Positions 4,501 through 60,427 of a stretch of DNA of 64,000 nt are shown here, piece by piece. The translations under genes and the position numbers were made by a program. The notes beneath the pieces were generated by a model that was not told the origin of the DNA, searched no databases, and worked only from the letters and a program-made list of their open reading frames with translations. The stretch is from the NCBI GenBank assembly GCA_051294905.1, contig CM119372.1, positions 6,202,001-6,266,000 on the forward strand. The letters run 5' to 3'. The first letter of the stretch is position 1. Every line of letters begins with the position of its first letter. Origin of the DNA: Botryllus schlosseri (lineage: Eukaryota).

Positions 4501-4919
4501 ATTGGGCCACAAGAATTCCAAATGAATCCACAACATAAATGATATAGGGTGCCTTAAAATGGTAATTTTATTGTCTGATTCGCTGCCTTCGGCAGCTCAA
4601 CACGGTGGCAACATTTTGACCGCCTTCGGCGCGCGTAACTTATGTAGGTGATAAACGAGCACAGCATACAACCTCGGAAGGGTACGTGGGTGGGAAAAGG
4701 TTAGGGACCACTGCGTTAGTTGACTAAAGCTCTCTGAAAATGACTGTTGAACCTCTTGTCATCTACAATATTAGGATAGGAGGCCTTCCACATCAGATTT
4801 GATCCATAAGATCTCAGAATACAGAGTAAATGCCAGATAAATGCCCTAATGAACGTACCCTCAATATCTTGCAATTCTTGTTGGATACATTACACTCACC
4901 GCATAATTGCCAATCACAG

Positions 4920-5036
4920 ACATCGACGAATGCGCTTCGGATCCGTGCGGCACCAACGCCAACTGCACCAACTCAAAAGGAAGCTTCACCTGCACATGCA
5001 ATACCGGATATTCAGGAGACGGATTCACTTGCGAAC
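4920..5036 (+). CDS. Gene A exon: calcium-binding EGF domain (phase 1-1)
   Basis: cag|AC ATC GAC GAA TGC...TGC GAA C|gtgcgt, 117 nt; xIDECASDPCGTNANCTNSKGSFTCTCNTGYSGDGFTCE has 6 Cys and the C-x-N-x4-F-x-C-x-C consensus. Confidence 0.9.
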
Positions 5037-5634
5037 GTGCGTCCAGTTACACTTTTTACTCTGTAATCCGGGGGTCGGCAACCCCCGGCACGCGTATCAT
5101 TTGTGGCACCCGGGATGATTTTGCATGACACGCCAAAGGCTTTGACGCACACAACATCTTATTACCGTGTTTGTTGCAAAACGTTTAACGTAAGTTTTCA
5201 AAATGGAAAAAGCTCGTAAACGACTCAAAATTATTTTGTAAACCAACATAAAATAGAGTTGTTGGGCCGCTAAATTATATTCACTTTGAACATTTTTTTT
5301 GCGCTTCGCGCGATTTACTTGGACCTATTTTCTTGACTGTCATGTGGGAAACCTTATATCGTATGAAACCCTATCGATGCTTTAGTCCAGTACTTCCCAA
5401 CCGGTGGGTTGCAAAGTTATTTCGGGTGGGTCACGAATAATTTTAAAATTTTACAGTTTCCTAAACAATATTCCAGGTAACTTAACTTCTGCCTATTACA
5501 AGTTCTTATCCTCTAAAATAAGTTATTTTCGCGCCCAGGCGCCGCGTTCTCGTGCTAACAATATAATTCGTGAGTCAGATTTTCGTGGCATGTCATCTTG
5601 ATTGTAGCGCAAAATTGGACAGTTTGTTATGGTG

Positions 5635-6579
5635 TAGGGATGGTGTGAACGTGAGGTTCACGTTCGTGTTCTGTGTGTGAACCTCGGAAAATTTGAGGTT
5701 CGCGTTCACAACAGAACCTTGGTAGGTTCTGCACTGTGAACCTTTTTCATATATTGCAATTTTCACTTCATTATAACATCTTTGGTTCAAATTTATTGAC
5801 TTTCAACTGCGGGCCACTATATGCATGGGGCTGGCAGCGCAACACTAAACGTGCATGCCCCTGGCAATCTCAAAAATTTACTTGTATTGTTACAAAAGTT
5901 TGCCCGAAATATCCAGCCTTCCGTTTGTGCATATTTAGTGTCTCTGTGCTGTGAGCTTGACCCGCAATCACATGGCATCAAGAGCGAAATACACTGTATT
6001 TTGTCAGCAAATGATCCTTATCCAACCAATCAATGAGATTGATATAGTCTTCTGATGTAAAAATCTAGCAGGCGTACGGGGTCAATCTCGACTACATATG
6101 TATACTGTATCATAAAAACCAAATTCGTGCGACTGGGGTGTTGGCTATACTGCTGTATAACTTGTTAATCGGTAGCAAGTAGGCTATAGAAACCCATTTT
6201 ACACTCTGCTCAATATCCATGGGGCAATACTCAGACGCCGAATACATTGTCCGATCAGGTCGCAATTGTTGGCAAAGCGACGCAAGATACTGATTTTATG
6301 GGAATAATATATCATTTGATTGCCCCTGTTGATACATTTGGCGACGTTTCAAACGTTAATATGTACTTAAGTACTGAGCTATTATGTGGCCCCGAGTCGT
6401 CGCTCGGTATCGTGTACAGTAGATTAATATAGGCAATCACCCAATTAAAATATGGGGTTTAAATTAGCAACATGACGCCACGTGACGTCATGAGGTTCAC
6501 GTTCGTGTTCACACAGAACGTTTCAAAAAGGTTCACGTTCACACGAACCTGAACCTTTCAGAGGTTCACACCATCCCTA
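5635..6579. mobile_element. hAT-type MITE
   Basis: TIRs TAGGGATGGTGTGAAC...GTTCACACCATCCCTA with perfect TSD TTATGGTG; a partial relative lies at about 40741-41490. Confidence 0.9.
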
Positions 6580-7722
6580 TTATGGTGTAATGTTAAGCCT
6601 GAGAATTGGAATTAATTGCTTTTTCCTCCAAAGGCTTTGCGTACGTTGATCGGGAAATGCAGCAATCCAGCTCGATTTGCTGTTATAATGAGCAAACAAT
6701 TGCCACGACGCAAGCTACTCAGAACCCGATTGCGTTCAACGTAAAATATACGCGCTTTCTCGTTTGTAATAATCTGTTACGTGTAATAATTCTTGTCTGC
6801 TTCATACACTAGTATTCCTGAATTTTCTCCCTACTCGGTATCCAGTTTAACTCGTTACTCTACGACGCATTGTGCGTGGAGAGATAGCGTTGTGATTCGC
6901 AGCTGCAACACCAATTGGTTGCGGATTCGAGTAAGGCCGAGGCTGACTCCATTACCCATCCCAAGTGTTGGATGTTTATCTGTAGGCTGCTACTCGCCAT
7001 CTCATCAGCGTAAACGTTGTCGTAAAAAGATGCGAGTGCTACAAGTCGGCAGCTGCGGAATCAAAATATAGAATACGAGCCTGGTGTAAATGGCTATCGC
7101 AGTCGAAAAACACCACGAATACCACAAACAACAACGGCGCATTGTGCGATGATTCACGATTTCATCCGTTTTGTCATATCTCATGGTGGGTCGCAAAATG
7201 AAATGTGGATGAAAAATGGGTCGCGAACTGAAAAATATTTGGAAGCACTACTTCAGTCTATAGGAGTGGGTACTGTGAAGCACGTGGGAGCGCGACTATT
7301 TTATGAAGTGGAATGTCAGCGCTATTGTATCGTGTATATCCGTGCATGTCCACGCCAACTACTATACATTCATGCCTACATTTCTCAGAGGCGGAATATA
7401 CATAGAGTTTTAGTACTTTTACAAATAGATTAATTCGATACTCCGCATTTAGGCTTATCTTTATTCTAAATTGCTTGCTACGATGTCCCACGCTGGCTAC
7501 ATAAATGCAAATGTACTCGGTATTACATGTGGATCTGCGGTGGCAGAATAACAGTATGACAGTATCTGTCTTCGGCGACAAATTAAATCATTTTTGAAGT
7601 TTTGCATTTGAATCCTTGAAATTTATGTCGCAGCAATATCAAATCCATATATTGCCATGACATATCACTGGCCCAGTTGACCAAGTACGACTATTGATAT
7701 ACAAAATTCAATTTCATTGCAG

Positions 7723-7901
7723 ACACGCCAACGCAAGATATCGCTCCACCGATTATTGGGGCCGTGCTGGCATTCGTCATCATCGTTCTATTAGCCCTTC
7801 TCGTCTGTGTGCTGGTCAGAAAGCGCAGAACGTCAAAGGATAAGCACGACTCGTCCCACGTCTACATGGACGCTATTGGAGTCCAACCACCAGCGCATTA
7901 A
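7723..7901 (+). CDS. Gene A terminal exon: TM helix and short cytoplasmic tail
   Basis: tttcattgcag|AC; (H)TPTQDIAPPIIGAVLAFVIIVLLALLVCVLVRKRRTSKDKHDSSHVYMDAIGVQPPAH*; in frame with 4920-5036; paralogous to 57622-57794. Not in the ORF track. Confidence 0.88.
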
Positions 7902-9814
7902 ACCGATTTTCGATTCCAAATGTTTAGGACTCAAGTCAAATTCCTTAGCTAATCATTTCCAATAGAGAACACAGTGACGATGAGATGGAAAACTGTCAGT
8001 ACGCGCTGAACTGTTTGAGTCATTTGACCCGAATCGGATTGATCTGAAAAACTACCGCACGGACACCTCATTTATTTCTTGATTAATAACTTCCGTTATG
8101 CAATAGTTGGCGTACTGCCGCAGCAAAAATGTATTGTGCTTTACACCCGTATAATTTATTCCGCCGTGCCATAAAGTATTCCTCTAAATTAGAAACGATG
8201 TAGCTAGCTAATCGGCACAGTCTTGAGTCCGCAACCGTAATGAAGATGAACAACCATGCCCGCGCATGTGAATGACTACTGAAATTACGGCGGTGCATAT
8301 TTTCAATATGATATGCACTCGCTTTGTAAGAATTCTTATCTGCCGAAATACCTTCCGTAGAAATATATTTATCGGCATGTTTTATTCAATGTTCCGTTTT
8401 TTCTAAATTCGCAGTTCGGATATAGTGGGCGGAAGCCCCAGAAAGCTGTATCACAGGATTTTGCGGGAGCAAGATGTCACATATCTGATAGACCACATAC
8501 AGATCAAGGTCAGGACGAGTACTTTGCGGTCGGATTAAATCCAGGGCAGACTGGGCACTTCGAAAACTTGATTGATTCGATACTGAATCGACTATGGGCT
8601 TTGGCTCAAGTGGAGTATTGACGACGTCAGAGCAGTATACTATATGATTTGAAGGGCTCTTCAAATATACCTATGAATCATCATAGCCTGCGACCACATG
8701 GAACACGATGCCAGTTAGCCTATATCACATTAAGATATTTGAGTGTTTTGCGGTTTTGTGTAAATGTGGATCACTACTTCAGAGAAAAGACGTTTCCGTC
8801 GACGTATGTACCTTTATGCTACATATTTTGGATGCTCTGATAAAAATAACCCTGGTTTCAGAGCTTCTAAGGCGGGAAGAAAGTATCGATACTGCGACTC
8901 TCATTAATGGGCATTTCGGTGTCGGCCATTACCGCGTCACGACGCACCAAGACGAATGAAGTTTTAGGCCATGTAAAAGATGCGACTCCGATAAGTGTGC
9001 CAGAACCATCGACAGTGGCGCCGAGTGTTCCTGTCCCCGCAAGACACACACTCTTAGCGAAAAGAGTGGGTATACTCACCCCAAAAGGTGGTACACGAAA
9101 ACAGAACTTACGTAACCCTGCGGGTGTATATGACCAGAATCCACCCCATTCCTTGCGGTGTATATCGCATATCTCACCCTAGCCATTAGAATTGATAGGG
9201 GCGGAATTTGAATATATCCACCCTACTTGAAATCCTGTATCTTCTGCCAAATGACACACTATTGCATATAAACATTCTTGATTGCAATGCATATATTCGA
9301 TATCAATTGAACCATATTAACATAAAATGGAAACATAGTTCGTGAAATAACAAAAACAGAGATCCCAGCGACGGAGAAAAAAATTCACTGAAAATACTGC
9401 TCGAAGAATATTGCCCCTGTAATATTGGGAAGCCGCCTCCTCCAGGTTTCCGCAAAACACTCTTTGTACAGCGAAGGTTGAGTCACTATCTTCAGCAAGA
9501 ACTTGTGGCATCATCCTTAAATCAAAATGCATACTCACAACCCAATTAACAGGCACATACGCTATGATAACTTAACGAAGTCCACAAAAATAGAAGCCGT
9601 TACCAAGTATATATATTTTCACAGAGTACTTACAAAAAATCAGATGTTTCACTCGATAAGGCATTGCAGTACAGACTGTGGCCCGATACGGTGAACTTAC
9701 CGCTATAGGAAACATATTCACACACGATCACTGATGTGTGGGCAATTAGGCATCGACAAGATGGAAATTTATGGATAAACCGCATGTACCAGGCAGACTT
9801 GGACATTGGGTGGA

Positions 9815-10278
9815 GACGATGCACACCAAATTTGACTCAATTCCAACCAGTAAAGGCCGTGCAATCTCGAATTGAAATTTTTAATTTATTAGGAAAAAAA
9901 TGAAAAAAATTTCAAATTTTCCTGTCAACCTCATGAAATTGTTGGGTTGTCTTCAAAGACGATGCAAAACAAATTTGACTATATTCTAACTAGTAGAAGC
10001 AGAACTATCTGAGTTTTTCGTTGATAATTCCCATTGAATTGAGGATTATCAACGAAAAACTCAAATAGCTCTGCTTCTTCTAGTTGGAATCCCCATTGGA
10101 TTGGGGATTATCAATGAAAAACTCAAATAGCTCTGCTTCTACTTTCAATTCAAGATTGCACTGCCTTTACTGGTCGGAATTGAGTCAAATTTGATGTGCA
10201 ACGTTTTCTTAGACAACCTGATAATTTAGTCACTAAGCGAGTGAGATTTGGAAAAAAGTTTTTTCTTGAACAACCCTA
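9815..10278. mobile_element. Truncated foldback element related to 34470-35086
   Basis: Internal hairpin at about 9993-10080; ends GAACAACCCTA. Confidence 0.7.
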
Positions 10279-10286
10279 CTGTAGAA

Positions 10287-10914
10287 TAGGTGTGTTCAAA
10301 AATTACTTTTTCAAATTCTACCGGCTACATGATAAAATTGTTAGGTTACCTAATTGACGCCTGCACACCATATTTGGTTCGATTCCAACCAGTAGCCGCA
10401 TTGCTACAGAAGAAAGTTTTTTGTTTATTATATGAAAATGAATAAAAAAAGACTTGAAATTTTCTGTTCACCCCATTAAATTGTTAGGTTGTCCATAGAA
10501 ACAATGCTCAACCGATTTGGCTCAATTCCAACCAGTGGAAGCGGTTGGATTTGAATAAAATAGCATTTACGGGGACCGATTCTTTAATCATTTATTACAA
10601 TTGTGGCCACCGTAAATACCATTTTATTAAATTCCAAATTTTTCGACATCAATAACTCCGCTTCGGCTGGTTTGAATTGAACCAAATTTGGTGGGCATCG
10701 TTTCTATAGACAACCTAACAATTTCCTGGGTAAACAGAAAATTTTGAATTTTTTTCACTCATTTTTAAATGATAAATAAAAAACTTCCTTCTGCAGTAAT
10801 GCGGCTTCTGGTTGGAATTGAACCATATTTGGTGTGTAGCCTTCGATTCGCTAATCTAATAATTTTATCAAGTAGCCAGTAGAATTTGAGAATAAAATCA
10901 TTTTAACACCCTTA
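10287..10914. mobile_element. Foldback (long inverted repeat) hAT-like element
   Basis: About 300-bp imperfect inverted arms, TAGGTGTGTTCAAAAA...TTTTAACACCCT; paralogue of 12008-12672. Confidence 0.8.
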
Positions 10915-11269
10915 TTGTACAGCGAGCTTGGCTGTTTCGCACTATACAGTTCTGCTGTAGCATTTCCAGGAAAACCAGACATTAAATTAGAAATGAAACT
11001 AGGCTATAGAAAGATTTCATACATTCGATTAGAATTGGAATTAGAGCTTAGAAACATTTCACAAATTAGAATAGCTTCATTTAGTATAATTAGACAACTA
11101 GAATATCTATAGTTGTCCAAGTTCGGCAACACCGCTTGCATCAGAAATAACTGAATATATTTTGAAGATTCTTTCTGTTAGTAGTGTCATATGCCATTAG
11201 TAATTTTATATTAGTCGCAAAGATTCACATCGTAATTTTCAAAGTAGAAACCTCCGAAAAACTGCTTAC

Positions 11270-11591
11270 CATACTTGTCTATTTTTCCGACATTTCGTAT
11301 TCTACTTCTACTTGACGTAGCTTTGACTTGTACTGGGGACTGTTGCATCTACATAAATTGACGACGGTATTTCTACATCGACTTGAGTAGCAGCGTTGGT
11401 AACTTTGACCATCTCTGCTTTGGTTTACCTCATATATGCGACTACGAAAGTTGACATCAGGTGTCGCTAACAAAGTTGTCATACCTGCTGGCTTGATAAC
11501 GAGTCTTTCAGTTTTCGCATCATACTCTCAAACTCCGTTAGTTCCTGTGATAGAATCTTGCTCTTGCAGCATGCAGTCTTTAAGCAGCATC
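11270..11591 (-). CDS. Putative orphan exon pair, copy 1 (11591-11485, 11348-11270)
   Basis: Canonical AG/GT borders; open frame GCCLKTACCKSKILSQELTEFESMMRKLKDSLSSQQ|MQQSPVQVKATSSRSRIRNVGKIDKY; the same frame is open in copy 2. Confidence 0.4.
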
Positions 11592-12007
11592 CTAAATTTT
11601 GAAGAAAATCAGAGAAATACATGCATGGACTTGAGTTAAATCTGACTACTTGGTATTAATACAAAACACGAAACGTTTCCTGGTTGGGCAATATTAACTT
11701 TCAGAGTGGATTCAAAGCGACCACAGATACTAGTCTGATTATAGAAACCTTGACTTGCCTTATATATGGAAATTAGCAAATTAGCTGGAAGCTAATGATT
11801 ACCTTGCAATATGTGCTGTTTGATGAAGGTCCATCACTGTTTCGAAGCATACGGTTTTACGGTTCAATGCGACGTCGACTTGGTTGATATCCCCTGACAT
11901 GATCGTGTATCATAACATCCTAAAATTGAAAAATAACCACGAAGTATAAACGTTTAGTTGGCAATTTGGATTGGATTCTAAACTCCCAAGTCATCTGATA
12001 TGTGCAA

Positions 12008-12672
12008 TAGGGGTCTTCAAAAATGACTTTTTCTCTCAAATCGTACTGGCTACTTGATAAAATTGTTAGGTTACCTAATTGAAGCCTGCACACCAAATTT
12101 GGTTCGATTCCAACCAGTAGCCGCATTGCTACAGGAGAACAAAGTTTTTACTTATCAGGCCTATATGAAAATGAGTAAAAAAAAATTAAAATTTTCTGTT
12201 CACCCATTATATTGTTAGGTTTTCTATAGAAAGAATGCTCAACCGATTTGGCTCAATTTCAACCAGTGGAAGCGGAGTTATTGGCGTCGAAAAATTTTGG
12301 ATTTCAGTAAAATAGTATTTACGGTGACCGATTTTTAAATCATTTATTACAGTTGCGCCCACCGTAAATACTATTTTATTCAAATCCAAAGTTTTCGACA
12401 TCGATAACTCCGCTTCGGATGGTTTGAATAGAGGCAAATTTGGTGGGCATTGTTTATAGACAACCTAACGGTTGCATGGGTGCACAGAAAATTTTGAATT
12501 ATTTTTACTCATTTTTATATAATAAATAAATAAACTTTCGTCTCCCGTAGCAATGCGGCTGCTGGTTGGAACCGAACCAAATTTAGTGTGCAAGCTTCAA
12601 TTAGGTAACCTAACAATTTCATCAAGTAGCCACAAGAATTTGAGAATAAAAAGTCATTTTTGAACACCCCTG
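12008..12672. mobile_element. Foldback hAT-like element (paralogue of 10287-10914)
   Basis: TAGGGGTCTTCAAAA...TTTTGAACACCCCTG with long inverted arms. Confidence 0.8.
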
Positions 12673-12850
12673 CTGTACAGCAAGCTTGGCACGTTTCGCA
12701 CTATATAGTACTACTGTAGCATTATCAGGAAAATCAGACATTGGATTATAATTGAATTTAGACCATAGAAAGATTTCATAAATTCGATTAGAATTAGAAT
12801 TAGAGCATAGAAACATTTCACAAATTACAATGGCCTCGATTAGTATATTT

Positions 12851-13108
12851 AGAGAGAGAGACATGGTATTCTTTTTCGCCTGCACCATCGAGATGCTTTT
12901 TGACAACGGACATGCGATACGGCCTTTATAGTAAGGTCATCTAATCTGCACCCCCGTTTTTTTCTCCTCCATGCTATCCGTGATTGCTGAGCGCCTAGCG
13001 GGATAGCCGCGAATACCAGTTTTTGAGTCTTTGGTCTGACCCGGCCGGGGATTGAACACGCGACGTACCGATCGAGAAGCCGGACGCACAACCATTACAC
13101 TATCTCGC
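12851..13108 (-). mobile_element. tRNA-derived SINE (core reminiscent of MetaSINE)
   Basis: Minus strand: A box TAGTGTAATGG, B box GTTCAATCCC, then GGGTCAGACCAAAGACTCAAAAACTGGTA...GGCGCTCAGCA and a (CT)n tail; absent from the paralogous site near 11095. Superfamily assignment is from memory only. Confidence 0.8.
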
Positions 13109-13277
13109 TAGAATATCTAGTTGTCCAAGTCTGGCAACACCGCCTATATCAGGATAACTGAATATATTTTTGAAGATTCTGTCTGTTAGTAGTGTCATAT
13201 GCTATTAGTAACTTTACAATAATCGCGAACATTCATATCGCAATTTTCAAAACAGAAACTTCCGAAAAACTGCTTAC

Positions 13278-13599
13278 CATACTTAACTATTCTTCCGACA
13301 TTTTGTATTCTGATTCCACTTGACGTAGTTTTGACTTGTATTGGGAAATGTTGTATCTACTTGTAATCGAGTATAAATTGACGGCAGCATTTCTACATCG
13401 ACTTGAGTAGCAACGCTAGTAACTTTGACAATCTCTGCTCTGGTTTACTTCATATATGCGACTACGAAAGTTGACATCAGGTGTCGTTAACAAAGTTGTA
13501 ATACCTGCTGTCTTGATAACAATTCTTTCAGTTTTCGCAGCATAGTCCCAAGATTGGTTAATTCCTCTAATGTAATCTTGCTCTTGCTGCGTGCGGTCT
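13278..13599 (-). CDS. Putative orphan exon pair, copy 2 (13599-13505, 13356-13278)
   Basis: Canonical borders; xTARSKSKITLEELTNLGTMLRKLKELLSRQQ|IQHFPIQVKTTSSGIRIQNVGRIVKY. Confidence 0.4.
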
Positions 13600-13725
13600 C
13601 TAAAATTTAGAGAAAATCAGATATAGAAAAATTGATATGAATTTAATATTGATTCAAAACACGTTTGAAACGTTTCCTCCTCAGGCAATATTGACTTTCA
13701 GAATGGATTCAAAGGGACCACAGAT

Positions 13726-14251
13726 CAGGATTGTACTGATTCGAGTCATGAATTGACTCGAGTCAGGATTTTCTGATGACTCGACTTAACTCGAGTCATT
13801 TGCTCAAAATATGGAAATGACTCGACTCGAGTCAATCAGTGTATTGACTCGACTTGGACTTGAGTCATTGCGCATGACTCGAACCTAGTCATATGACTCA
13901 AGATTCAGACGGCGAAGACCTACATTTCTTTGAAATTTCGGAGAATAGTAAAGTAACCTCACTATTTAGATTACGCCTATTGGTACTGGTACTTAAAATT
14001 TCGACCAGTGAGGGAAATTAGTATATTTATGAATGCGAACCATTCGATATCACCAAACAGAGTTATAAAAAGTGGATTGAACAAGATTTCAACTGGAAGC
14101 TGATCAGTCAACACAATGACTTGGACTCGGATTCGAGTCATAATACCATGACTCAGTGGTCAAAGAAAAATGACTCGACCTGACTCGAGTCAAAACTATA
14201 TTAGTGAGATTGACTTCTGACTCTGAGCCTCGTGACTTGGTTACAACCCCG
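13726..14251. mobile_element. hAT-type MITE with GACTCGAGTC motifs (second family)
   Basis: Perfect TSD CCACAGAT; empty site CCACAGAT at 11721-11728 in the paralogous segment. Confidence 0.88.
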
Positions 14252-25696: not shown

Positions 25697-25748
25697 CTGG
25701 GCCCTAAGAACATTACAAAGATCGACGTGTGATATACGAATACGAAAC

Positions 25749-44994: not shown

Positions 44995-45033
44995 TACGAT
45001 ATATCATACTCACCGTATAATTGCCAATCACAG

Positions 45034-45150: not shown

Positions 45151-45511
45151 GTGCGTCGAGTTACACTTTTTACTGTGTAATCCGGTGGTCGGCAATCCCC
45201 GGCACGCGTACTATTTGTGACACGCGATATGATTTGTCATGGCACGCCAAATGCTTTGACGCACACGACATATTACTGGTGAAAGACGGGAATTTTTGAC
45301 GTTATATATTTTGGGTAATTATAAATAACACATTAAATAAAATCGGTATCGCGAGATACACAGGAAATGAAACATATGTATCGGTAATTATGTTTTGGGT
45401 ATAATATAGATTGAATGAAGTCTGTGCACTATCTCGATGTTGGACAGGAAATGTGGTATGACATGATTTGTGTAAAATGCGAAATATTGAGAGGTAGTAA
45501 TTCGTATTTAT

Positions 45512-47840: not shown

Positions 47841-50060
47841 GTATTTATATATGTATGTCATACACGTAAATATTAATTCATCAAGTCATTCAATTCGGTT
47901 ATATCCAATTCGACATCTTTACTTTGGCACGGTTTCCTCAATAAATAATTACAAGTGAGAAAGAAAGAAAGAAAGAAACAATAAAGTTGTCCTTATGAAT
48001 TTTCTATACGTGTGTACCAGACAGACTCTGTGGTACGTGAGTCGAAGTCCTTCACTGTCGTGGACGCCTATCCGTCGAAAGGAAGATATACGCAGCGAAT
48101 CTACAAGTAACCTTCTAAAGTCAGATTACACAAATATAACATCTCAAAGACTTTCGCCCTGCGGTAGGCTATATGAGACAATTTTATTTCCTCATTTTTA
48201 TTTCAACTACAGTGCACTAAAATCTTTTTCGGTCAAATAGTTGCTGGGATTTGAACAAGAACTCCTAGCACCTGGATGGATATGTCTTTATAAAAACCAT
48301 CCAACACTCCCATCCAAAATGCACCATATTTTACGCGAGTGGTAAATGCTTTTTGACAGATGCAAAGGCTTTAGTGGCATATCGCGACCCAAGCCTCACA
48401 CTTCAAAAAGAACGCAATTTTAAAATTAATATGCTACGATTTTACGGGCATGTAAAGTTGTACGGGTTGCGGTGTAAAAAGTTTAATAACCACTGCCTTA
48501 ACCCAGCAAACATTTGATGGTCCACATATAGCCCTCGGACGTACGATCAAAAGTCCCTGACCTATCCCCTACACTGTTCACTCGGACTGGAGGTGTTGAA
48601 TCCCCCCGACGTTCACTCACTGGTCAGTGACCGTCTGGTAAATCATTCCCGGGCCAGTGGAGGGAGAAAGTTGGAACGAATTTATCTGGCACTGGCAAGA
48701 CATACCTGGGCAGTGCGCTTCTGCCTCAGCTACCCCTACCATCACCAGGATCTAACTAGACGCACCAACTTACAAGATTGATTTTTCGTTTCCGAAACTT
48801 ATATTAGCATAAAAATATCAACATAAAAAAAAAACTGAAAACAGCAGAAAGCTAACTGTAACACCACACAGTCATTGACAATATCATTAATCAATCAAAA
48901 TAAAGAAAGTTGGTCGATGAGAGTGAAAACGAGGCAATACCCGCTGCACACTACACATATGCACACTTGCAGACAACAATTCCTCTCGCTGGTAACATCT
49001 TCAACTTCATACAGGTAGACGAGTCGGATTGATGATGATGAACGCCTTTACCAAGTATCTTTGCCATCTCGAGTGCAACGTTGAGACAAGATATTCAGTT
49101 TCTTTGCATTTTCTTTCTGAAATATTTACCGAGAAATTAATTCCAGCAAACATGAAATAATCCTTCAAAATGCTAGCATATTCGGAATACCTTGATGCAA
49201 ACATTACAGATTACTTAATATGACATGATGTGCATATGGCAAAGACCATGAATATAACAGAATTTGTGACTTTGTTAGAACTGTGGATAGAAATCACTCA
49301 ATACAAAGCATTCAAGACACGAAAAGTGTCACAACTAGAAGCGAATGAGTTGTAATAAACTACTTGCCGGTCTTTCTACTGCAGCGGGAGAACCCTAGGG
49401 AAGGGTCTCATTGCAAACACTCGAACAGCAAACGGCTGCATACCAGGGAATAGCTGCCAACTACTTTACTTGACTAGCATTAAAATAAAAACGACAATTA
49501 TAGTTACACCATATTGTCCAAATCTGATTCGCAAACGGAATTGGATTAGAATTAAAATAAGGGCACAGAAACATTTCCAAAGTTAGATTAGAATTAGATC
49601 AGCCGCATTTCGCTCCAATTAATCTGTAATTGGACAACTGGAATCATCTAGTTCTAGTCGGTCAAGTCTGCCTCAAGAGACTATTACATTATGCTACTTG
49701 ACTAGCAGGTGCGTATCCCGGCGGTTCGAAGGTTCAGCCCCCCCCATCATTATTTCAAGTGTTGTCAATGGTGGCAATCGACTGTGCACAACGGCAGGTG
49801 CAGCAAGCAGGCAGAGACTCGACACTTTGATTGTGGCCTTATTGCTGATGGGATGTTCAAGCCTGTGGTGACGTCGTGTGCAAATTTATCAATGACCAGA
49901 TTTCACATTCAAATGAATAACAGTATCAGTGGGAGGTCTCGTGCCGCTGCGCAGTCGATTCTCACGAATTGGCAGCACGCAACACTTGAAATGGGGGGGG
50001 GTTTCGTTTCTACCCCCCTAATAAGGACAAAATTTTAGCAAAATGGTGGTTCCGGTAATC

Positions 50061-50787
50061 CAGGGCTGGCCAACCTTTTCAGCCAAAGGGCCACATTCGA
50101 TTGACGAACTTTTGCGCGGGCCACTATCCGCGCGAAGCGCGAAAATTTTTGGAAGTTCATAGGTCAATAATATTGTCACTTGACTATATTGCGGGCCTGC
50201 TGTGTATCCCTGAGCTAAGTTTGCGAGGACTGGGCTATTCAGCGCATGGACATATCGATATCGAAAGCTGCGACCAACATGCGTCAATCATTTCGTGCCT
50301 AGGTCTAGTGGACGGTCTTACTGCGAGCGCAAACGCAAGGTCGCATATGTTGAACGACACTTTGTCTCATGATCGCTAATATAGTTCGACTCAATCTGAT
50401 ACTTGGTCATTGGGTGTTCTTCAATTTTCACAAAAATGCAACAATATTAAGAACAAGAAATCGAGTGACAACATATTGCGCTAAGCTTGTAGAAAATTTT
50501 TACCTTTGATAAATCTATCGCAAATTATTCTGCTTTATTGTAGTGTACGAAGATATACCAATATATGAATGGTTGATGGATCTGTCAATGAGTCGAAACT
50601 GATAGTTTAGTCATCACATCTCAAGTGTTGCGGCCTGACTAATCAGATATTTGGTTGGCCTTGCAAGTTCACAATCTGTGCAATCCGTTTTTGATGATAT
50701 TAGAAATTTCGGAAATTACCTCGCGGGCCACTCAAAACCTTCTCGCGGGCCACATGTGGCCCGCGGGCCACGGGTTGGCCGGCCCTG
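50061..50787. mobile_element. hAT MITE nested in the CMC element
   Basis: TIR CAGGGCYGGCCAACC, perfect TSD CGGTAATC. Confidence 0.92.
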
Positions 50788-50821
50788 CGGTAATCTAATC
50801 CTCACCTAATTAAGGGGAAGT

Positions 50822-50962
50822 GTTTATGCTCTTATTATAAAAGTTGGGAAAATTGTGTAGCTATAATTGTGTATTAAAGTTGGGAAAATTGTGTAGCTGT
50901 AATTGTGTAGCTATAGTTTATGCTCTTATTATAAAAGTTGGGAAAATTGTGTAGCTATAATT
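50822..50962. repeat. Short tandem duplication array
   Basis: AAAGTTGGGAAAATTGTGTAGCT three times and GTTTATGCTCTTATTATAA twice. Confidence 0.85.
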
Positions 50963-50979
50963 CTAATGCTTATCAACTG

Positions 50980-52880
50980 GAGTAGTATTCCGCATTGGCG
51001 GCATTGACAAAATAGATACACCAAGAACCAGTGCATCATAGCAAGGTTCCACACTACCCATCATCTCAGCCCACCAATGAATATTACAGCAAGCCCCTAA
51101 ATTAGAGATTGTGTTGAACAATTTAGAGACAGCTTGACATATTCACATGTTCAACTTACGATGATTTGGTATAGACTCAGTTTACACAGAGCTCTTTTCT
51201 TTTCCTTTCTGGCTTTCGGAGAGTATTCGCTCCAAACTCAATCAGTTGCAACTCTTCGGTACAATTTTCCTTGTGAATGCGACAACAACGGGAGTCATTG
51301 GTTTTGCCTGGAAAGATATGACAAGTTTTAACATTACGACAATGTCATAAAACCCATGTGGAAAGGCTTAGGGCCTACTGTATCAGAAAAAACCAAGCGT
51401 ATTGTAGCGCAGCAAGCACTTGCAAAATTATTACTGAGACAAACAGAGAGATGATGAACACCGAACGATCACAAGATACCCTATTCCATGTGTAGTATTA
51501 CGTAAGACAATTCTTTATTATATACTATTCATTTACTCAGGCGTGTAGCCTGGGGGGTCAGGGGTCGAAACCAATGTGTGCACAATGTAACGCGACGTCA
51601 TAACACCCCGCAATTCGTCGCCTCTGGCTGTACTGTACAGTACAATATACATCATTCAATAGAACACCGGCATCTCAATTCGCATGAAACGACGACACAT
51701 GTTTTCTAGATGTTCGGCCACAATAATTTTTTCAAATGTGCGAATCGAATTAGAACTACCCAATTTAAAAAAATCCTTAATGGGTAGTTTGTACAGTCTG
51801 AATTATGGTGATATACTTTATGAATAAACTACTTTTCACACTAAAATTAACGACCACGAAAACGAAATAAACCAACACACAGGTAAAACACGGGTAAATA
51901 TATGAGTATGGTTACGCAATATAACCATTATCCTCTATGCGTATGCATCAGACAATTAATATTGCATCTACCTTGGTCTGTCGATTTTTGTTTTTACATG
52001 TGCATGGCGCAACACAGATGCAATGTCGTAGCCCTTTTCCGAAACAGTTGTATGAATATTGCAACAAGCACCTAAATAGAAAGATAGCATTAAACAAAAC
52101 ATAATAGACAACAAACTAGTTCAACCTACAATATATGATCATGTATAAACTCAGTGCACAGCTCTCTTCCCAGTTCAGCCCTTCAATGAGAATTCGCACC
52201 AAACTTTATCGGTTGAAACTCCATAGGCTAGAGCATTCTTCTTACATAGTCATTCATGGTGGACGCCCTGAGGGGATTCATTGCTGATACCTGAAAAATA
52301 ATTAAAAGTTGACACATCTTCATGAATGTGCCATAAAACTCTATAGGCTATAACGACGTTTACCTACATCAGAATACCAAGGATATTTTTTTATGAAAAG
52401 CAAGTTATAAGAAATTATTACTGGGACGATCAAGGAAACGATAAATAGCAAACGCCCACAAGATATTTATTCTACTTATATCACACAAGACAGAAGTCTG
52501 AATTATATCCTAATCATTTTCCATACCTCTCGAACGAAGCTTTCCAGTTCTACAACACCCTCAAATGGTTGCGGAATGATACCGTATCTTCAATAAGCAT
52601 TACTCCAGTTCTGTTCCGTGGTTTTCATTGGATATTTGGGGCTGGTTGGCAGACTGTATAGTTTCTGCATCAGCAACTTTACGTTCCTCTTACAATCGTT
52701 TTTCATGTCTTTTATTGCGATATACAGCGAGTGGTGATGGATCCGATATTCAACCAGGAACAGCAATCTTGGCCGAAATGCTCCCGCCATTATCCACTCT
52801 TGCTTTAGCTAGAGATCATTTTCTCTTCACCCAATCTACTTGATATATTTTTTACGTGAATTTCTCTTGTAGATATAACT
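50980..52880 (-). pseudogene. Two tandem decayed spliced genes with DUF4806-like motifs inside the CMC element
   Basis: Exon 52290-52130 (YVRRML..VSTDKVWCEFSLKG*TGKRA) and exon 51307-51160 (LYRRVATD*VWSEYSPKARKEKKRALCKLSLYQII), each followed by an exon starting ACCNIH. Confidence 0.55.
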
Positions 52881-54766
52881 GTAATAGGGCTGGCTAGAAT
52901 TGAATATCAGTACTTTAATAATACAATTCCGAATCCATGCATTAATATCTGCAATATTAGCGAGCACGATTATGAGTACATTGAGTAGGTATGTTCAACT
53001 CGATCAAATCCTGTCAAAATGCTACCATCATATCCATTCCTAGTTCTAAACCACAGAACAGTAGCTCTTACCTCATGTTGATCGAGAAATCAAGTTTGAT
53101 AGCAATAATAGGACGTACTATATATAACAGTATGAAATGAACTCTAAACAACACCGAACATGCGTCATTGCTATAATATAAGGATTCAATAACCAACCAA
53201 GCGCATTCTCGCTGTGGGCATAAGCCACTTCTGACTAGATAGATAGATAATTATATTTGTGTGTAGCGCTTTACGCTATATACACAGTACGACTATAACA
53301 CTAACCGTATCATTGACTCACTACGCTAACTAGAGCCAGTAGTTATAAGCAACCAACGAGGTAAGTGACGCAAAGCAGATTCCCTAATGCTTCTCTCGCC
53401 GCTGACAGCAAGTTCGAACTTGCCAGACGAAAATTTGAGTCACGTGACTGTGTGCACTGAGACAATGCGCATGTAGGGAAAAACGCTAATGATCTCATCC
53501 ACGAAGGCCACAACGAGACGATCGTTAACAATGTTCAGTGATGTTCAACGCAGGAACTTCGGTAAAACACCTTATATGACGGTACAGTACGGTATAGTTT
53601 ATGACATGCTCGAAATAAAAGTTCGAAAGAACCATCAACTCCTCAATACCAGCATATAATTCCGATCAAGCCTAATATATAATCCCGATCAAGTCATAAA
53701 CGAAATACAGATTCATTGTGCGCAGACGCCATTTCTGCCGACCGGTTGAGCCCATTTTAGCGAAAAACGCTATAAACGTATCTGACGACGTGAAGCACGC
53801 GAAAGGTTCGTCACATATCTTTCGGAATTGCGAATGTTCACCGCAGGAACAAACAGTAACGCGACAGCTGAAAAGGCATAGAAATCGTAACGCCTAAAAG
53901 CTTGAAATGAAGGCCCGACATGGAATATATTGACCATTCAATGCCAACATGCATAATGCGGTTATACGCCACCACGTCGCTGAAGAATCAAGTCAAGTGA
54001 CGATTTTCTTTCAAACTATATTCTTGAAATATTTTGAAAGGATGAAATATGTGCACTTATCAGCACAGGAACTTGAGATGTTGGCTTTTTAGCTGAAACA
54101 ACGTGTAAATATCCGCACACTGTCAGAATGTAATATCCATCGGACATTCGACTTGGAATTTCAGTGGACTCTCCTAAATGTTGGTTCGGAGGTATGTTCT
54201 TGGATATCCGAGAAGGACAGTACCAAATCTGGATAGCCTAGTATATGCCCCCGCATGTCCAAGCGGACACTCAGACACTCGGACACTTCTCGGACCCAAC
54301 TCGGATGGCCCACGACAATTGGGTGTTTGCTGGGAAGAGCCCATGAAGTGAAAAAAATAGTATTCACAGTAACTTGCCAATGTGAGATTTACTGCTATCT
54401 TCGTGCCTCGCAACAATCAATCCGTCATTAGAAAATAAGATGATTGTTCAGAGTAAGAAAGTTGAACGCGCGTGTCACAGGCTCAGACGACCTGATGCAT
54501 TATATAGGCCTATAGTCTACCGGACACTGCATCCCGCTTTCGAACCTATTTCCTATTAGGTTTATTTGAGCTTTTCCACGTCAAAAAAGTAACAATTATT
54601 TACGATTTTCGTCGGCACTCATCCGTATTCTCATTCGCCTCATTCGCACCAAGTTTGTCACTCGCACCGCAGTTTTTTTCATTCGCACAAGTGCGTACCA
54701 TCCCACAGGTTGAAAAGCTCTGATGCAGGTTATATCATATACTCACCGTACAACTGCCAATCACAG

Positions 54767-54883
54767 CTATCGACGAATGCGCTTCGAGTCCGTGTGACAC
54801 CAACGCCAACTGCACCAACTCAGAAGGAAGCTTCACTTGCACATGCAATACCGGATATTCCGGAGACGGATTCACTTGCGAAC
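54767..54883 (+). CDS. Gene B exon 6: calcium-binding EGF (phase 1-1)
   Basis: cag|CT...GAA C|gtgcgt, 117 nt; xIDECASSPCDTNANCTNSEGSFTCTCNTGYSGDGFTCE. Confidence 0.88.
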
Positions 54884-55378
54884 GTGCGTCGAGTTACGCT
54901 TTTTACTCTGTAGTCCGGCACGCGTATCATTTGTGGCACCCGAGATGATTTTTCATGACACGCTAAATACTTTGACGTACACGACATAAACCATGTTTGT
55001 TGCAAAACGTGCAACATTAGTTTTCAAAATGGAAAAGGCTCGTACGTTTTTCGAACGTTGATCGGGAAATGCAGCAATCCAGCTCGATTTGCTGTTATAA
55101 TGGGCAAACTACTCAGGACTCCATTGCGTTCAACGTCAAAAATACGCGCTTTCTCGTTTGTAACAATCTGTTACGTGTAACATTTCTTGTCTGCTTCATA
55201 CACTAGTATTCCTGAATTTTCTCGCATCTCGGTATCCGGTAAACTCATTACTCATACGACGCATTTTGCGTCCCGAGATAACGTTGTGATTCGCACCTGC
55301 AACACCAAGGTTGCGGATTTGAGTCCGGCCGCAGTTGACTCCATAACCACACCCCAAGTGTTGGATGTTTATCTAGAG

Positions 55379-56879
55379 CAGAGGTCTCAAACACGCGGCC
55401 CGCCAGAGCATTTTGTGCGGTCCGCGACGGCATTTTGGAATTTCAAGTATTCAACAATATATCCAAGTGCTATAAAACTTTTTTAGATATTAGAACTTAT
55501 AGTTCACCCCAAAACTACTATAAAAATCACTGAAATCTCAACAAACTTCACTATCACATCACTTTCAAAAGCTACCATACGGCAGAAGATCAACTATTAC
55601 GTCACATTTCTAGTTAAAGATGATAAAACATGAACCGTTGATAATTCGTGACTGAAAATTGTGATTTGGTTTGGTGCGATCTTCTCGTGAAATTGCTCGA
55701 TTTCAGATTGACTGGGGGATTAAATAAAAATGACTCGAGTTAAGTCGGGTCAAACGTTAAAATCAGAGAAGGACTTGCGACTCGCAACGATGACTTGGTA
55801 ATCCTACGGACGCAACAATCTATGAAACTGCCATGCGGAATAGTAATATATCAAAAGGTCGTAGCTTGTGTTGCGTTGAGTATATAGCTGTCTGATCAGG
55901 TCAGCATAGCAAGCATTGGCATTCTGTGAACCCCGTGACGTATAGTTGGTTACGTACTGGGTGTTGTTTGTTCTCTTTATTCATGTTATTATCGGTGGCG
56001 AGCAAGGTAGTAGTACGCTCTACAGCTGTCGCACCAATGAATTCATCGCCGATTGGACATTTCTATTCCAGGGGTGCTTAACCAGGTTACGTATACCCCA
56101 CCTGGGTACGAAGCACCCAGCAGGGTGTACGAGATGCATTGTGGAATTTGGCCAATATGCTGTGGAATATTTCCTGGCGCATTTGCTCAACTGGAAAATA
56201 ATTTTCGCGCTACGTGCGATTTTATGTGAATGGACTTTCTGATTTTAATATAGGTACCATCAGAAGTTGTGTTGAAAATGGACAGGGGCTACGAGAAATC
56301 TCATTGGAGGTACAATGGGTACGATCGCTAAAAAGGTTAAGAAGCAATGCTATTAATAGGCTTAATAATGAATATATTCAAGTTCATTGATATATTCCGA
56401 TAATAATCGAAGGCAAAATATGACGCAGTTTTAATTTGACTTTGGCAATGACAGTAACAGTATCACGACTATATCAAAACCAGGATTAGGCTATACCGCT
56501 CAAATGATCTGATATCAGATCAATCTTCAGTGGATTTAAAAATATTCTACATAAAATTGTGGCACGTCAAAGGTCCACCGACAGTTTTACGATGTCATGA
56601 TGCATCCTCTCGCCTGATGTCTTTAACTCATTAATTAAAAAATTATGCCCGGCACAAACACAATTTTATTCAAATACATGAATATGTGATTTTTTCCGTT
56701 TCAGGCGTGAATAATACAATAATAAATTACATTTACACGATGTTTGTGGAATGCCTGTCCCGTCAAATAAGGCTACTTGGAAATATACATTGAATATCCC
56801 TATTATTGAAGCTGCGGCCCGCGTCGTCATCAAAAATTAGGAAATTGGCCCGCGAGCACATTTGAGTTTGAGACCTCTG
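55379..56879. mobile_element. hAT (Charlie-like) element with a nested MITE
   Basis: TIR CAGAGGTCTCAAAC, perfect TSD ATCTAGAG; absent at the paralogous site near 6980. Confidence 0.92.
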
Positions 56880-57621
56880 ATCTAGAGGCTCCTATACTCG
56901 CCATCTCGTCGGTATAAGCGTTGTCTTGAAAAGATGCAAGTGCTACAAGTCGGCAGCTACGGAATCAAAATAAAGAATACGGGCCTGGTGTAAATGGCCA
57001 TCGCATTCGAAAAGCACCACGAACACCACAAACAACAACGGTGTATTGTGCGCTGATTTACGATTTCATTCGATTTGTCATATCTCATGGTGGGTCGCAC
57101 AATAGAAGTTGGATGAAAAGTGGGTCGCGGACTGAAAAAGGTTTGAAAGCACTGATTTAGTCTGTGGGAGTGTTTACTGTGCAGTCGGTGCGAGCGCGAA
57201 TATTTTATGAAGTGGAATGTCAGCGCTATTATATCGTGTATGTCCGTGCATGTCCACGCCAACTACTTTACATTAAGGCCTACATTTCTCAGAGGCGACA
57301 TATACATAGAGTTTTAGCTGCTTTACTTACAGATTAATTCTGTACTCCGCTTTTAGGCTTATCTTTATTCTAAATTACTTGGTACGATGTCCCACCCTGG
57401 CTGCATAGAGGCAAAGTTACTCGGGATTATACATGTGGATTTTCGGTGGCAAAATAACAGTATGACAGTTTCTGTCTTCGGCGACAAATTGAACCATTTC
57501 TGATGTTTTTAAACTGAATCCTTATAACTTATGTAGCAGCAATATCAAATCCATAAATTGCCATGAAATATCACTGGCGCAGCTGGCCAAGTACGACTAT
57601 TGAAATTCAATTTCATTGCAG

Positions 57622-57794
57622 ACACGTCAACGCAAGATATCGCTCTACCAATTATGGGGGCCGTGCTGGCATTCATCCTCATCATTCTACTAGCCCTTCT
57701 CGTCTTTGTGCGGGTCAGAAAGCGCAGGTCGTCAAAGCACGACTTGTCCCACGTCAACATGCATGCTATTGGAGTCCAACCGCCCGCGCATTAA
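57622..57794 (+). CDS. Gene B terminal exon: TM helix and short tail
   Basis: tttcattgcag|AC; (H)TSTQDIALPIMGAVLAFILIILLALLVFVRVRKRRSSKHDLSHVNMHAIGVQPPAH*. Confidence 0.9.
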
Positions 57795-60427
57795 ACCGAT
57801 TTTCGATTCCAAGCCGTCATAGAAATATTCAGGACTCAAGTCAAATTCGATTTTCTTATATAATCATTCCGAATAGAGAACACAGTAACGATGAGACGGA
57901 AAAGTGTCAGTACGTGCTGAACTGTTTGAGTCATTTGACCTGAATCAGATTGATCTGAAAAGCTACCTCATGGACACTTCCTTTATATCTTGATTATTAA
58001 CTTCCGTTATGCACTAGCTGGCGTACAGCCGCCGCAACAACAATGTATTGTACTTTACACCTGCATAATTTATTCCGCCGTACCAAAACGTATTCCCCTA
58101 AATTCGAAACGATGTAGCAAGTTATTCGGCCCAATCTTGAGTCCGCAACCGTAATGAAGATGAGCAATTGAGCATTGAACAATAAAAAACCATGCCCGCG
58201 CATGTGAATGACTACTGAAATTACGACGATGCATACGCACTCGCTTTGTGAGAATCCTTATCGGCTGAAATATATCCTTCCGTAGAAATATATTGATCGG
58301 CATGTTTTATTCAATGTTCCGTTTTTTTCAACTCGCAGTTATGATATATAGTCGACAGACACCCAAGAAAGCCGTATCACATGATTTTGCAGCAGTAAGA
58401 TGTCACATCTCAAATGGACCAGGTACAGATCAAGATATTGTCAAGGCGAGTACATTGCGGTCGGATTGAATCAAGATCTGACTCTGGGCAAAATCGAATA
58501 CTTGATTGATGCGATTCTGAATCGAGTCGAGTATTGACGACGTCACAACGGTATATTTGGACAGTTCAAATATGTGCCTATGATGCGATCACATCGAACG
58601 CGATGCCAGTTAGATAGCGCTACTATATTTTTAGATCAGAAAAGAGGACACTTTTCGAAAATTCTGAAAGCTCCATTGTCGGGAAAGAAAACTGATGATT
58701 TAGGATAAATTTCGACCAGTAGTACTGCGATGATCAAAAAAAGGTCATCTTTCCGACTCGACTGCCCAATATCCGCTTTACTCCATTTCAGCCGTGTTGA
58801 CTAAAAATGGAAGGTCATCACTTTGACTATGGACTTCCACATTGACCACTTTTACGACACTTCTGTGGTGTTGACTAGAAAAAAAGGTGATCTTATCCAT
58901 ATCTACTCCCAAAATACCCGCCGCGCCGTATTTTTCGTTCATTGTCTTGCCAACACCGGCGTTCGCTGACTCGTAGTTCACTTTTTGATCTCATTTTACC
59001 ACTTTTTCTGTAAAATGATGACAAATTTCAAAAAATAGGACATTTAGGAGTCATGCCATGACACTTTCAACTGGTTAAAAAATACGACAATTCCTCTTTA
59101 AAGAGGACATATCGTAACCCTACACTCCAGTTATATCACATCAAGATGTTTGGCTATTTTGCGATCATATAGTTCTTTCCTCTCACTACTTCAGAGAAGG
59201 GGCGTTTCCTTCGCCGTGTGTAGCTTTACATGCGTTGGATGCCCTGATAAAAACAATCCTGCTTTCAAAGCTTTGAAGGTGGGAAGAAAGTATCGAAACT
59301 GCAATTCTCAGTTATAAAATTCACGGTGAGAAGGGGCGTATAATGTCAGTACTCACATTCGAGTACTCAAATTGTTGTGCACAGTCCCCAGCACAGCTAA
59401 CATCATATAATATCTTTATCCACGAGATATTGCGATACTTATGTCTTATGTGTTCACAGCATGCAGTGTTACATTACAAACGACGATCTATGCATTAACA
59501 AATATGAATATTTTATTATAGATGATTAAAAATTATTTTAGTCTTAATCCTGACGAATTATGTTTGAAATTAGAACACCCCGACAGTACAAACGTTGGAA
59601 GTGGACTTCATTTTGTTACGTGTTATAAGAGTGAAGTATGAAATAACGGATTATTACTTGTATTTGAAACAAAAGAATTTTAGGTCAAAAGCAATATTTA
59701 CACAATATGCAACTTAAAACAGATGAAAACATTTGAAAAGTTTGGAACTCATAGTGTGTAACGAAGAACATAAATCATAAGATATGTCATGGCTTACATA
59801 TATAAACGAGAAAAGTTTTACGTAAAGGATATCAAACTAATTAGAAGCATCAATACAGAACCCGGATTGTAAAAGCACTATAATCTGGTGTACTATATTC
59901 GATGACTATAGGGAAAATAGATTTGCTCTATATGGAGTCGAAATTTCGGCACCTCCTTCTCAGTACATAATGAATTATACATAGATTTGTTCGGGAAACT
60001 TTTTTGCTCGAATGTTCATAGCATAGTGCGATGTTGGTTGAACGCATTTCGATGAACTCCTTCCATCTGTGCACTGGTAAAATTTGCCACAACAAGTATT
60101 TCATGTCTAATCAGTGTTGGGATAAAGTCGCTGTAAGGTGCTTATATCCATGGATGAGTAAATTGACAGTCACAAGTCCTTATTTGGAGACTACTGTAGC
60201 GATCAATTAGCATCACTGTCTTGTTTTTCGTTATTCAATGTTAGTACGAGTCCGAGATGTGTCTTTGTGTGCAATATTTTGAGGTGCGAGTCTTCCTCGA
60301 ATTGGCTTAAAGATGACAAATTGACATTTCATCTGGTGCATAAAGATCACCTCGGCACGCGTCGCTTCGTGATGGCTAACGCAGACACCTATCTGCTTTT
60401 TTGACATAGTTCCGATAAATTAGTAAG

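Follow-up and report, generated by a model that had tools for sequence, protein, structure and literature searches.

A transposon-bounded block with two sushi exons in one of two tandem EGF-type membrane protein genes of Botryllus schlosseri, and its empty site in the other

Genes A and B are tandem genes for predicted single-pass type I membrane glycoproteins of the tunicate Botryllus schlosseri. They lie in a stretch of 64,000 nucleotides (contig CM119372.1 of assembly GCA_051294905.1, positions 6,202,001 to 6,266,000, forward strand), hereafter the window, which has a GC content of 40.7% and is 36% self-repetitive. The two genes share a cassette composed of an exon for a calcium-binding EGF (cbEGF) domain and a last coding exon with the transmembrane (TM) segment; these are the only exons of gene A identified in the window. 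Gene B is modelled in the order EGF-sushi-sushi-cbEGF-cbEGF-TM, and its two sushi exons lie in a block that is bounded by transposable elements and has no counterpart in A. The coordinates of all features are collected in Table 1.

The gene B model displays canonical exon ends throughout, each internal exon being of phase 1-1, and is open over 386 aa without internal stop. Since all modules are of phase 1-1, the reading frame survives the insertion of such modules. The signal peptide is predicted from hydropathy only, and 64 aa, signal included, precede the EGF-like exon. Exon 2 has no Pfam match. For the EGF-like exon, "EGF-like domain" is the first Atlas match (0.92, 181/256 features), and Pfam returns no EGF match, only S_locus_glycop below its cut-off. 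All three cbEGF exons, the one of A and the two of B (B1 and B2), pass Pfam EGF_CA, and the typical pattern of the calcium motif fits two of them (A and B1, not B2). Two further candidates were discarded: the apparent exons at 29660-29844 are skipped by a joint in RNA-type contigs (see below), and an SRCR-like remnant at 27130-27540, faintly resembling an SRCR end by eye, contains stops and has no Pfam match. As the introns were not fully scanned by six-frame Pfam, small exons may be missing from the model. The initial annotation of the window had described the downstream part of gene B and missed its 5' exons (25749-30412), both sushi exons, a dead third sushi exon and the second cbEGF exon.

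Four same-strand colinear blocks link A and B in a self-blastn comparison, covering 2,598 bases of A with E-values down to 0. They bear out the duplicated cbEGF-TM cassette that had been proposed at 4890-8905 and 54740-59310; the duplicated cassette is real, and a tandem duplication is by itself ordinary. A third cbEGF exon (45034-45150), an upstream homology (4529-4885/32416-32769) and A-only sequence at 5219-5634 had been overlooked. The span of A with homology to B is thus 4529-8903. The upstream homology consists of an old end of a miniature inverted-repeat transposable element (MITE) common to both copies and of its non-MITE flank; in B it lies 12 kb ahead of the first cbEGF exon and also upstream of the sushi exons. 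Further extension into 1560-4530 and past 8900/59310 yields alignment scores at the level of shuffled sequence, and matches between 1-915 and 27604-28550 and between 3357-3720 and 31107-31479 are dispersed repeats, not counted as colinearity. Two of the transposons named as copy-specific in the initial annotation, 5635-6579 in A and 55379-56879 in B, stand with their 8-bp duplications, and the third insertion exists with a corrected end (~58614-59131, not to 59080). Such insertions are not the main difference between the copies, since B has acquired two sushi domains and one more cbEGF as well.

Excluding gap columns, A/B identity is 87-90% in the introns and 89.5% in the TM exon, and downstream of the stop it starts at 88% (first 820 bases) and ends at 79% (final 180). 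Pooled non-coding divergence is 12.2% (243/1,984 columns). The flat downstream identity equals that of the introns, so that the downstream match reflects age rather than constraint on a 3' untranslated region (UTR), and the former "shared 3' UTR" label has no evidence from it. Selective constraint is clear in the EGF exons, where the proportions of nonsynonymous and synonymous differences (pN/pS) are 0.044/0.125. Furthermore, both genes have kept open frames and all six cysteines, an outcome with a probability of ~0.004 under neutral drift at the intron rate in a calculation made post hoc.

Four of the 24 listed sequencing runs were aligned, over 25400-45300 only, with gene A and both TM exons falling outside. 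They include RNA-type contigs (X6), a second sample (X5) and raw RNA (X23, of which ~6% was read). Within the B region, the eight X5 contigs listed, from this one other sample, differ from B by 0.4-3.6%, with a mean of 1.9%. The A/B divergence of 12% is six times larger, which argues that A and B are not alleles. The possibility that they are uncollapsed alleles or an assembly artefact has some appeal in this species, for which the accessible text of one source gives a heterozygosity of 3.63% (PMC12448946) and that of another gives 88% identity between the most distant FF1 alleles (PMC12582321). It is nevertheless very improbable: besides the 12% intron divergence against 1.9% to the second sample, homology stops on both sides of the cassette, the copy-specific insertions are old, and the two EGF units of B are as far from each other (87-88% alike in non-coding DNA) as each is from A. 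The closest B match to the EGF region of A is the region of 45034-45150, at 89.9% in self-blastn. On this evidence, A and B are paralogs of a multigene family. At the edges of the cbEGF exon, X6 contigs show loose ends in which the upstream exon ends in Cys-Glu and the downstream linker is unlike that of A or B. At least one further family member, or a very distant allele, therefore exists. The multigene family suggested earlier is upheld by this post-EGF exon start, by a 5'-exon variant among the same contigs and by the paralogy of A and B, and its birth-and-death features are found as one exon duplicated in tandem and one sushi exon that has died.

The block with the sushi exons runs between the outer ends of two copies of one element family. 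Left ends of this family lie at 32770 and 43144, its right ends at 36613, 44028 and 54722. Copies 1 and 2 are in direct orientation, and 6.5 kb with the sushi exons lie between them. The family is taken here to be hAT-like from marks of that superfamily, namely short terminal inverted repeats (TIRs) starting with CAG and an 8-bp duplication. As given in the available part of the genome report, hAT-Charlie elements make up 2.96% of the B. schlosseri genome (PMC12448946). To align the target site, B was closed at the outer block ends, the later TA-flanked element at 44034-44994 being omitted. The cbEGF-side arm of A then agrees with B past 44028 at 35/40 once 8 bases are skipped, compared with 5-15 at the 15 remaining offsets, and the left arm, compared ungapped up to 32769, matches at 30/40 (8-14 in 12 shifted controls). 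MAFFT places the same 8-column gap. For the second EGF unit, ungapped comparison does best at an offset of 10 (31/40), owing to a further 2-base insertion. The 8 extra bases mark a target-site duplication (TSD). The outer flanks agree at 6/8 (B1) and 5/8 (B2) positions, and the own flank pairs of copy 1 and copy 2 only at 4/8 and 3/8; neither copy thus has a target duplication of its own.

In gene A the site is present once and bears no footprint, so that the block is a gain of B rather than a loss from A. In the accessible text on maize macrotransposons, excision leaves a modified 8-bp TSD (PMC9910405). Both EGF units of B carry the right end of the element, and B1 and B2 differ at 5/117 positions, versus 8-9/117 between A and B. 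Together these observations point to an order in which the A/B duplication would have come first, followed by the block insertion and finally by the tandem duplication of the EGF unit.

The likeliest course of events starts from an ancestral plan of ~208 aa, with signal peptide, short unique head, EGF-like domain, cbEGF, TM and short tail. After the A/B split (~12% divergence), the 11.3-kb sushi block would have been inserted 34 bp upstream of the cbEGF exon of B. At a donor sushi gene, a hAT transposase most likely acted on the outermost termini of two non-autonomous copies lying close together and moved both copies along with the intervening DNA, as a composite or macro-transposition. Gene B would later have duplicated its cbEGF exon in tandem and so grown to the 386-aa EGF-sushi-sushi-cbEGF-cbEGF-TM arrangement. 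If a hAT-type transposase works on the outer termini of a pair of copies, the whole pattern arises in one step, and it is rather likely that transposase and not recombination moved the block. Homologous recombination could yield identical flanks: a lone resident element would have made the 8-bp duplication, and a sushi-bearing circle or conversion tract, itself cut out between two element copies, would then have recombined in, again leaving a matching outer pair and an unrelated inner pair. The repeat-rich region (36% self-matching) and a tandem duplicate that begins within the element fit such exchanges. Yet this route requires two steps, both outer TIRs are intact, and copies 1 and 2 are only 70-77% alike while the event is ~12% old, so that they were already poor substrates; recombination is accordingly considered improbable. 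Joints in X5 and X6 from 32912 to 43402 and from 36216 to 43781, tried as traces of a haplotype without the block, were set aside because intact element copies elsewhere would give the same joints.

The X6 contigs join the signal exon to exon 2 (25847 to 29520, depth 936, 24 letters between) and exon 2 to the EGF-like exon (29585 to 30270, depth 1349, 5 letters between), in each case with the same length as the own splice of B. Given these matching lengths, the 5' splice sites are used in a highly expressed variant gene. For the sushi exons, X6 record 14 (645 nt) aligns only at 38159-38367, with 6 differences in 209 bases, and is therefore cut at the splice sites of sushi exon 1; the arms that it leaves unaligned (318 and 118 nt) and an overhang of 2 bases would be consistent with a transcript of the form 5' exons-sushi 1-sushi 2. 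Sushi exon 2 is covered in X6 at a depth of 57.6 (position 38792). In the second sample, single X5 contigs cover the signal-peptide exon, exon 2, flanking intron and sushi exon 1 at 96-99.6% identity, and the sequence is therefore not confined to this assembly. The runs differ strongly in expression.

The block might instead be an intronic passenger, with the sushi exons expressed from a donor or sister gene and gene B skipping them or dying, the whole being debris of birth and death. The 6 differences in 209 bases of the sushi-bearing contig could place it at another locus; related copies are suggested by X5, where 2-3 contigs at 38792, 41622 and 43484 add up to a depth near 130; and the third sushi exon is dead, while B2 lacks one calcium ligand. 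Against it, sushi exons 1 and 2, unlike the decayed third copy, have kept their open frames, all cysteines and canonical splice sites, and the arms and overhang of record 14 putatively fit a transcript running from the 5' exons through both sushi exons. A passenger block is unlikely on balance, and the sushi exons are probably included in the mRNA of gene B.

Taken together, the two genes are read as tandem paralogs of which B received a transposon-bounded, frame-preserving gain of sushi exons after the A/B duplication, with a probability of about two in three. Several observations weigh against this reading. Regarding the insertion, the copies of the target duplication are degenerate, and since a central TA is common to all these sites, target preference accounts for some of the flank agreement; no X5 contig spans the block edges, and neither donor locus nor transposase was found, a whole-genome search not being part of the analysis. 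Regarding expression, the X6 library type is not recorded, the high-depth X6 transcript is a variant and not B itself, and X23 (6% read) and the X7 contigs show almost no depth on the 5' exons. The joints listed include none from 30412 to 38161, from 38367 to 38713, from 38922 to 45034 or to the TM exon, which lies outside the aligned stretch. Finally, the TM exon is under weak constraint only (pN/pS 0.097/0.136), and gene A may lack 5' exons, those of B having no match within 1-4900, upstream of the cbEGF exon of A.

Composite foldback elements of Drosophila provide an animal precedent for two-element transposition. Closest in form are the maize Ac/Ds macrotransposons, described in the accessible text as units of 10-28 kb bounded by hAT termini and flanked by an 8-bp TSD (PMC9910405). 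Gene B displays the same arrangement: outer termini from two direct-orientation copies, one degenerate 8-bp duplication with an empty site in A, and no own duplications of the copies. The excision footprint, a modified TSD in the maize work, is missing in A. The maize units, according to the same partial text, carry enhancer or gene cargo in a plant and were followed genetically (PMC9910405), whereas the block of gene B brings two in-frame domain exons into an animal intron and is read from the empty site of a paralog, by sequence only. Animal Pack-TIRs (Tan et al. 2021, PMC8277862), as presented in the portion available, are TIR elements, mostly of the hAT type, that carry host sequence and often form chimeric transcripts. 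Their cargo lies inside a single element, with a median of 224 bp (PMC8277862, same portion). In gene B, two copies with four TIRs flank 6.5 kb of whole exons and introns, which sets the block apart from Pack-TIRs. A literature search, incomplete for subscription papers, returned nothing on this gene family or on two-element in-frame exon delivery into an animal gene.

The sushi module itself is found elsewhere among tunicates. Sushi exon 1 matches 250 proteins at E up to 0.001 with HMMER, the closest, P0014, being 68% identical, and four of the seven relatives looked up are Styela clava proteins. The tandem-sushi "E-/P-selectin-like" proteins XP_039266283.1, XP_077966642.1 and XP_077975763.1 of that species share the long-loop sushi of B, and the S. 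clava proteins, which come in several architectures, are 31-43% identical to its sushi 1. XP_039258803.1 (sushi-EGF-GPS-7TM) has sushi followed by cbEGF, as in B. The S. clava proteins differ from B in that as many as 55 repeats are matched and that one protein has seven TM segments (7TM), and their names are automatic; no match to the head, the EGF-like exon or the TM exon of B was found in them. XP_039258803.1 (P0001; 4,777 aa) with its ~55 long-loop sushi repeats, cbEGF, GPS and 7tm_2 domains is an adhesion-type G protein-coupled receptor built on the same sushi module. Vertebrate selectins possess a C-type lectin head, an EGF domain followed by sushi repeats, a TM and a short tail. Gene B resembles them in its EGF followed by sushi (if these are spliced in, as inferred), its TM and its short tail, but has no C-type lectin head and places cbEGF modules between sushi and TM. 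Sushi and sushi-EGF proteins also serve as markers of blood cell clusters in Botrylloides, these being large and different proteins in the available part of the source (PMC12212465). Longer proteins did not come up in word-index protein searches for which the TM exon, sushi 1 or the EGF-like exon served as query, which is weak evidence, and two metagenome scans gave no match.

Both tails are ~24-26 aa long with a basic stop-transfer sequence and follow a single TM without charged residue. Neither contains YxxI/L/V, hence no ITIM (immunoreceptor tyrosine-based inhibitory motif), hemITAM or core tyrosine motif, and the one tyrosine of the A tail is outside any ITIM or activation motif (ITAM) pattern. 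An alternative tail exon past the stop (open frame near 7962/57884) was rejected, as by eye it has no donor common to A and B and no tyrosine motif. The uncharged TM and the short motif-less tail argue against autonomous signalling or adaptor coupling. The odds are about even that the protein is a non-signalling surface adhesion or recognition molecule, in which an EGF stalk would hold the short unique N-terminal head away from the membrane and the Lys-Arg pair of the head may be a cleavage site. The additions of B would lengthen the stalk from two to five modules and add sushi surfaces.

The initial annotation had likened the cluster to those of immune receptors. With tails lacking YxxI/L/V, an uncharged TM and an architecture that is neither FF nor FcoR, this role is unsupported, and an immune function of the A/B protein is doubtful. 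The Botryllus fester family (FF) and the fester co-receptors (FcoR) are likewise clustered type I membrane proteins with sushi domains and fast turnover, in the text accessible for them (PMC12582321), and a polymorphic innate immune or allorecognition receptor cluster of their kind would account for the tandem paralogs, the module turnover, the sushi domains and the differences in expression between runs. FF/FcoR genes also vary the distance of head from membrane by splicing, an analogy only (PMC12065747, available part). However, FF proteins are Ig-sushi-3TM and FcoR proteins Ig-sushi-Ig-Ig-TM with tyrosine motifs, as outlined in the same partial text (PMC12582321). Gene B differs in having no Ig domain among the identified exons, in its EGF modules, in its one TM followed by a stop and in the lack of a tyrosine motif; its spliced 5' exons encode signal, 30 aa and EGF-like domain, the Ig scan of the introns not being exhaustive. 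FF/FcoR or fuhc identity was discarded because of the architecture. No FF-like exon, as expected from the head-to-head pairing of FcoR, was recognised upstream of B in a scan that was not exhaustive, and five short exon motifs were not found in the one supplement of PMC12582321 that was searched. Nor do A and B have the ITIM tail or charged TM of paired activating and inhibitory receptors. Sushi 1 differs at the allele level by 3.6% in X5 and 2.9% in X6, which is not exceptional. A receptor cluster of this immune type is rather unlikely.

Other elements and genes were observed in the window. Near gene A, open frames at 2531-2842 (+) and 8870-9178 (-) share a short motif, have no Pfam match and are probably repeat. 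Sequence at 10271-12004 and 12001-14554 forms an old tandem duplicate, and long palindromic foldbacks occur at 34469-35087, 10279-10922 and 12001-12679 (arm identity 95%, 75% and 81%, respectively). At 14600-15950 (-), donor- and acceptor-like signals accompany a short hydrophobic frame (15625-15712), and the neighbouring segment has stops in all frames, possibly a non-coding or decayed transcript. Between A and B, a decayed long terminal repeat (LTR) retrotransposon at 18227-25204 has direct repeats 84% alike (18227-18374 and 25058-25204) and pieces of integrase and of reverse transcriptase/RNase H at 21582-23703. A 1-kb MITE that contains short internal repeats is present in three copies (1-912, 27545-28548 and 41696-42694), is very deep in all four runs aligned, and interrupts the third sushi exon with its last copy. 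Inside element copy 3, a 5.8-kb element at 48502-54334, presumably CACTA/EnSpm-like, has 11-bp TIRs, a 2-bp AA duplication and minus-strand exon-like stretches at ~51300-53130 with no long frame. Tail-to-tail with gene B, the last exon of another single-TM gene lies at 60428-61147 (-), with a Ser/Thr-rich stalk, a TM and a ~30-aa tail; it has only a sub-cut-off Pfam match and Atlas leads below 0.9, and the open frame at 62275-62625 (-) is possibly part of the same gene.

Table 1. Positions of the features of genes A and B and of the sushi block in the window
Feature	Position	Strand	Evidence and remarks
Gene A, empty target site	4878-4885	.	single copy of the 8-mer that flanks the block of B twice
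Gene A, cbEGF exon, phase 1-1	4920-5036	+	Pfam EGF_CA 37.8 bits, cut-off 27; AG/GT ends
Gene A, last coding exon	7723-7901	+	short linker, single TM, basic stop-transfer, ~26-aa tail, stop
Gene A, downstream sequence common to B	7902-8903	+	possible 3' UTR; blastn and identity profile
Gene A, specific TIR element	5635-6579	.	perfect 8-bp TSD
A/B upstream homology	4529-4885 vs 32416-32769	+	81% blastn; alignment stops exactly at 4885/32769
A/B block 1	4891-5218 / 54738-55044	same strand	84%, self-blastn
A/B block 2	6636-6981 / 55048-55374	same strand	84%, self-blastn
A/B block 3	6978-8718 / 56880-58613	same strand	81%, self-blastn
A/B block 4	8721-8903 / 59132-59310	same strand	76%, self-blastn
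Gene B, exon 1 (ATG, predicted signal peptide, CxxC)	25749-25851	+	strong donor; X6 joint 25847 to 29520
Gene B, exon 2, 30 aa, family not assigned, Lys-Arg pair	29500-29589	+	X6 joints on both sides
Gene B, EGF-like exon, 6 Cys, phase 1-1	30269-30412	+	X6 joint 29585 to 30270; Atlas match
Gene B, intron segment homologous to A 4529-4885	32416-32769	+	last 8 bases are the left target-site copy
Inserted block, 11,259 bp	32770-44028	.	left end of element copy 1 to right end of copy 2; holds the sushi exons
hAT-like element copy 1	32770-36613	+	both 14-bp TIRs; ~3 kb nested insertions; three pieces match copy 2 at 70-77%
Sushi exon 1, phase 1-1	38161-38367	+	Pfam Sushi 28.2 bits, cut-off 20.7
Sushi exon 2, phase 1-1	38713-38922	+	Pfam Sushi 23.8 bits; AG/GT ends
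Dead duplicate of sushi exon 1	41597-42745	+	frameshift, stops, MITE at 41696-42694, decayed 3' end
hAT-like element copy 2, 885 bp	43144-44028	+	perfect 14-bp TIRs
TA-flanked TIR element	44034-44994	.	within the right target-site copy
Gene B, cbEGF exon 1	45034-45150	+	Pfam EGF_CA 37.3 bits; X6 loose ends at both edges
Tandem duplicate of 43318-45272	48181-54988	+	5'-truncated element copy 3 and cbEGF exon 2; 5.8-kb TIR element within
Gene B, cbEGF exon 2	54767-54883	+	Pfam EGF_CA 36 bits; first acidic residue of calcium motif lost
Gene B, specific hAT-like element	55379-56879	.	perfect 8-bp TSD
Gene B, last coding exon	57622-57794	+	linker, TM, ~24-aa tail without Tyr, stop
Gene B, downstream sequence common to A	57795-59310	+	broken by insertion at ~58614-59131

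Phase-1 modules such as EGF and sushi have built many animal extracellular proteins, but the events behind their movement usually lie too far back to be read. Macrotransposons and Pack-TIRs being already known, the worthwhile result here is the pair of a filled and an empty site, with a transposon-bounded gain of two sushi exons. With the filled site in B and the empty site in A, the step to EGF-sushi-sushi-cbEGF-cbEGF-TM can be dated and ordered. A more general proposal, held tentatively and with less than even confidence, is that in this ascidian lineage pairs of non-autonomous hAT elements repeatedly behave as composite transposons and carry phase-symmetric sushi exon blocks into introns of neighbouring surface-protein genes and so build expressed ectodomains. 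If true, it would amount to recurring transposase-driven domain shuffling in a chordate receptor region, with A preserving the pre-insertion state of B. Were the mRNA of gene B to include the sushi exons and a donor to be found, the locus would offer a testable case of exon shuffling by DNA transposons in a chordate and a route to the fast turnover of tunicate surface receptors.

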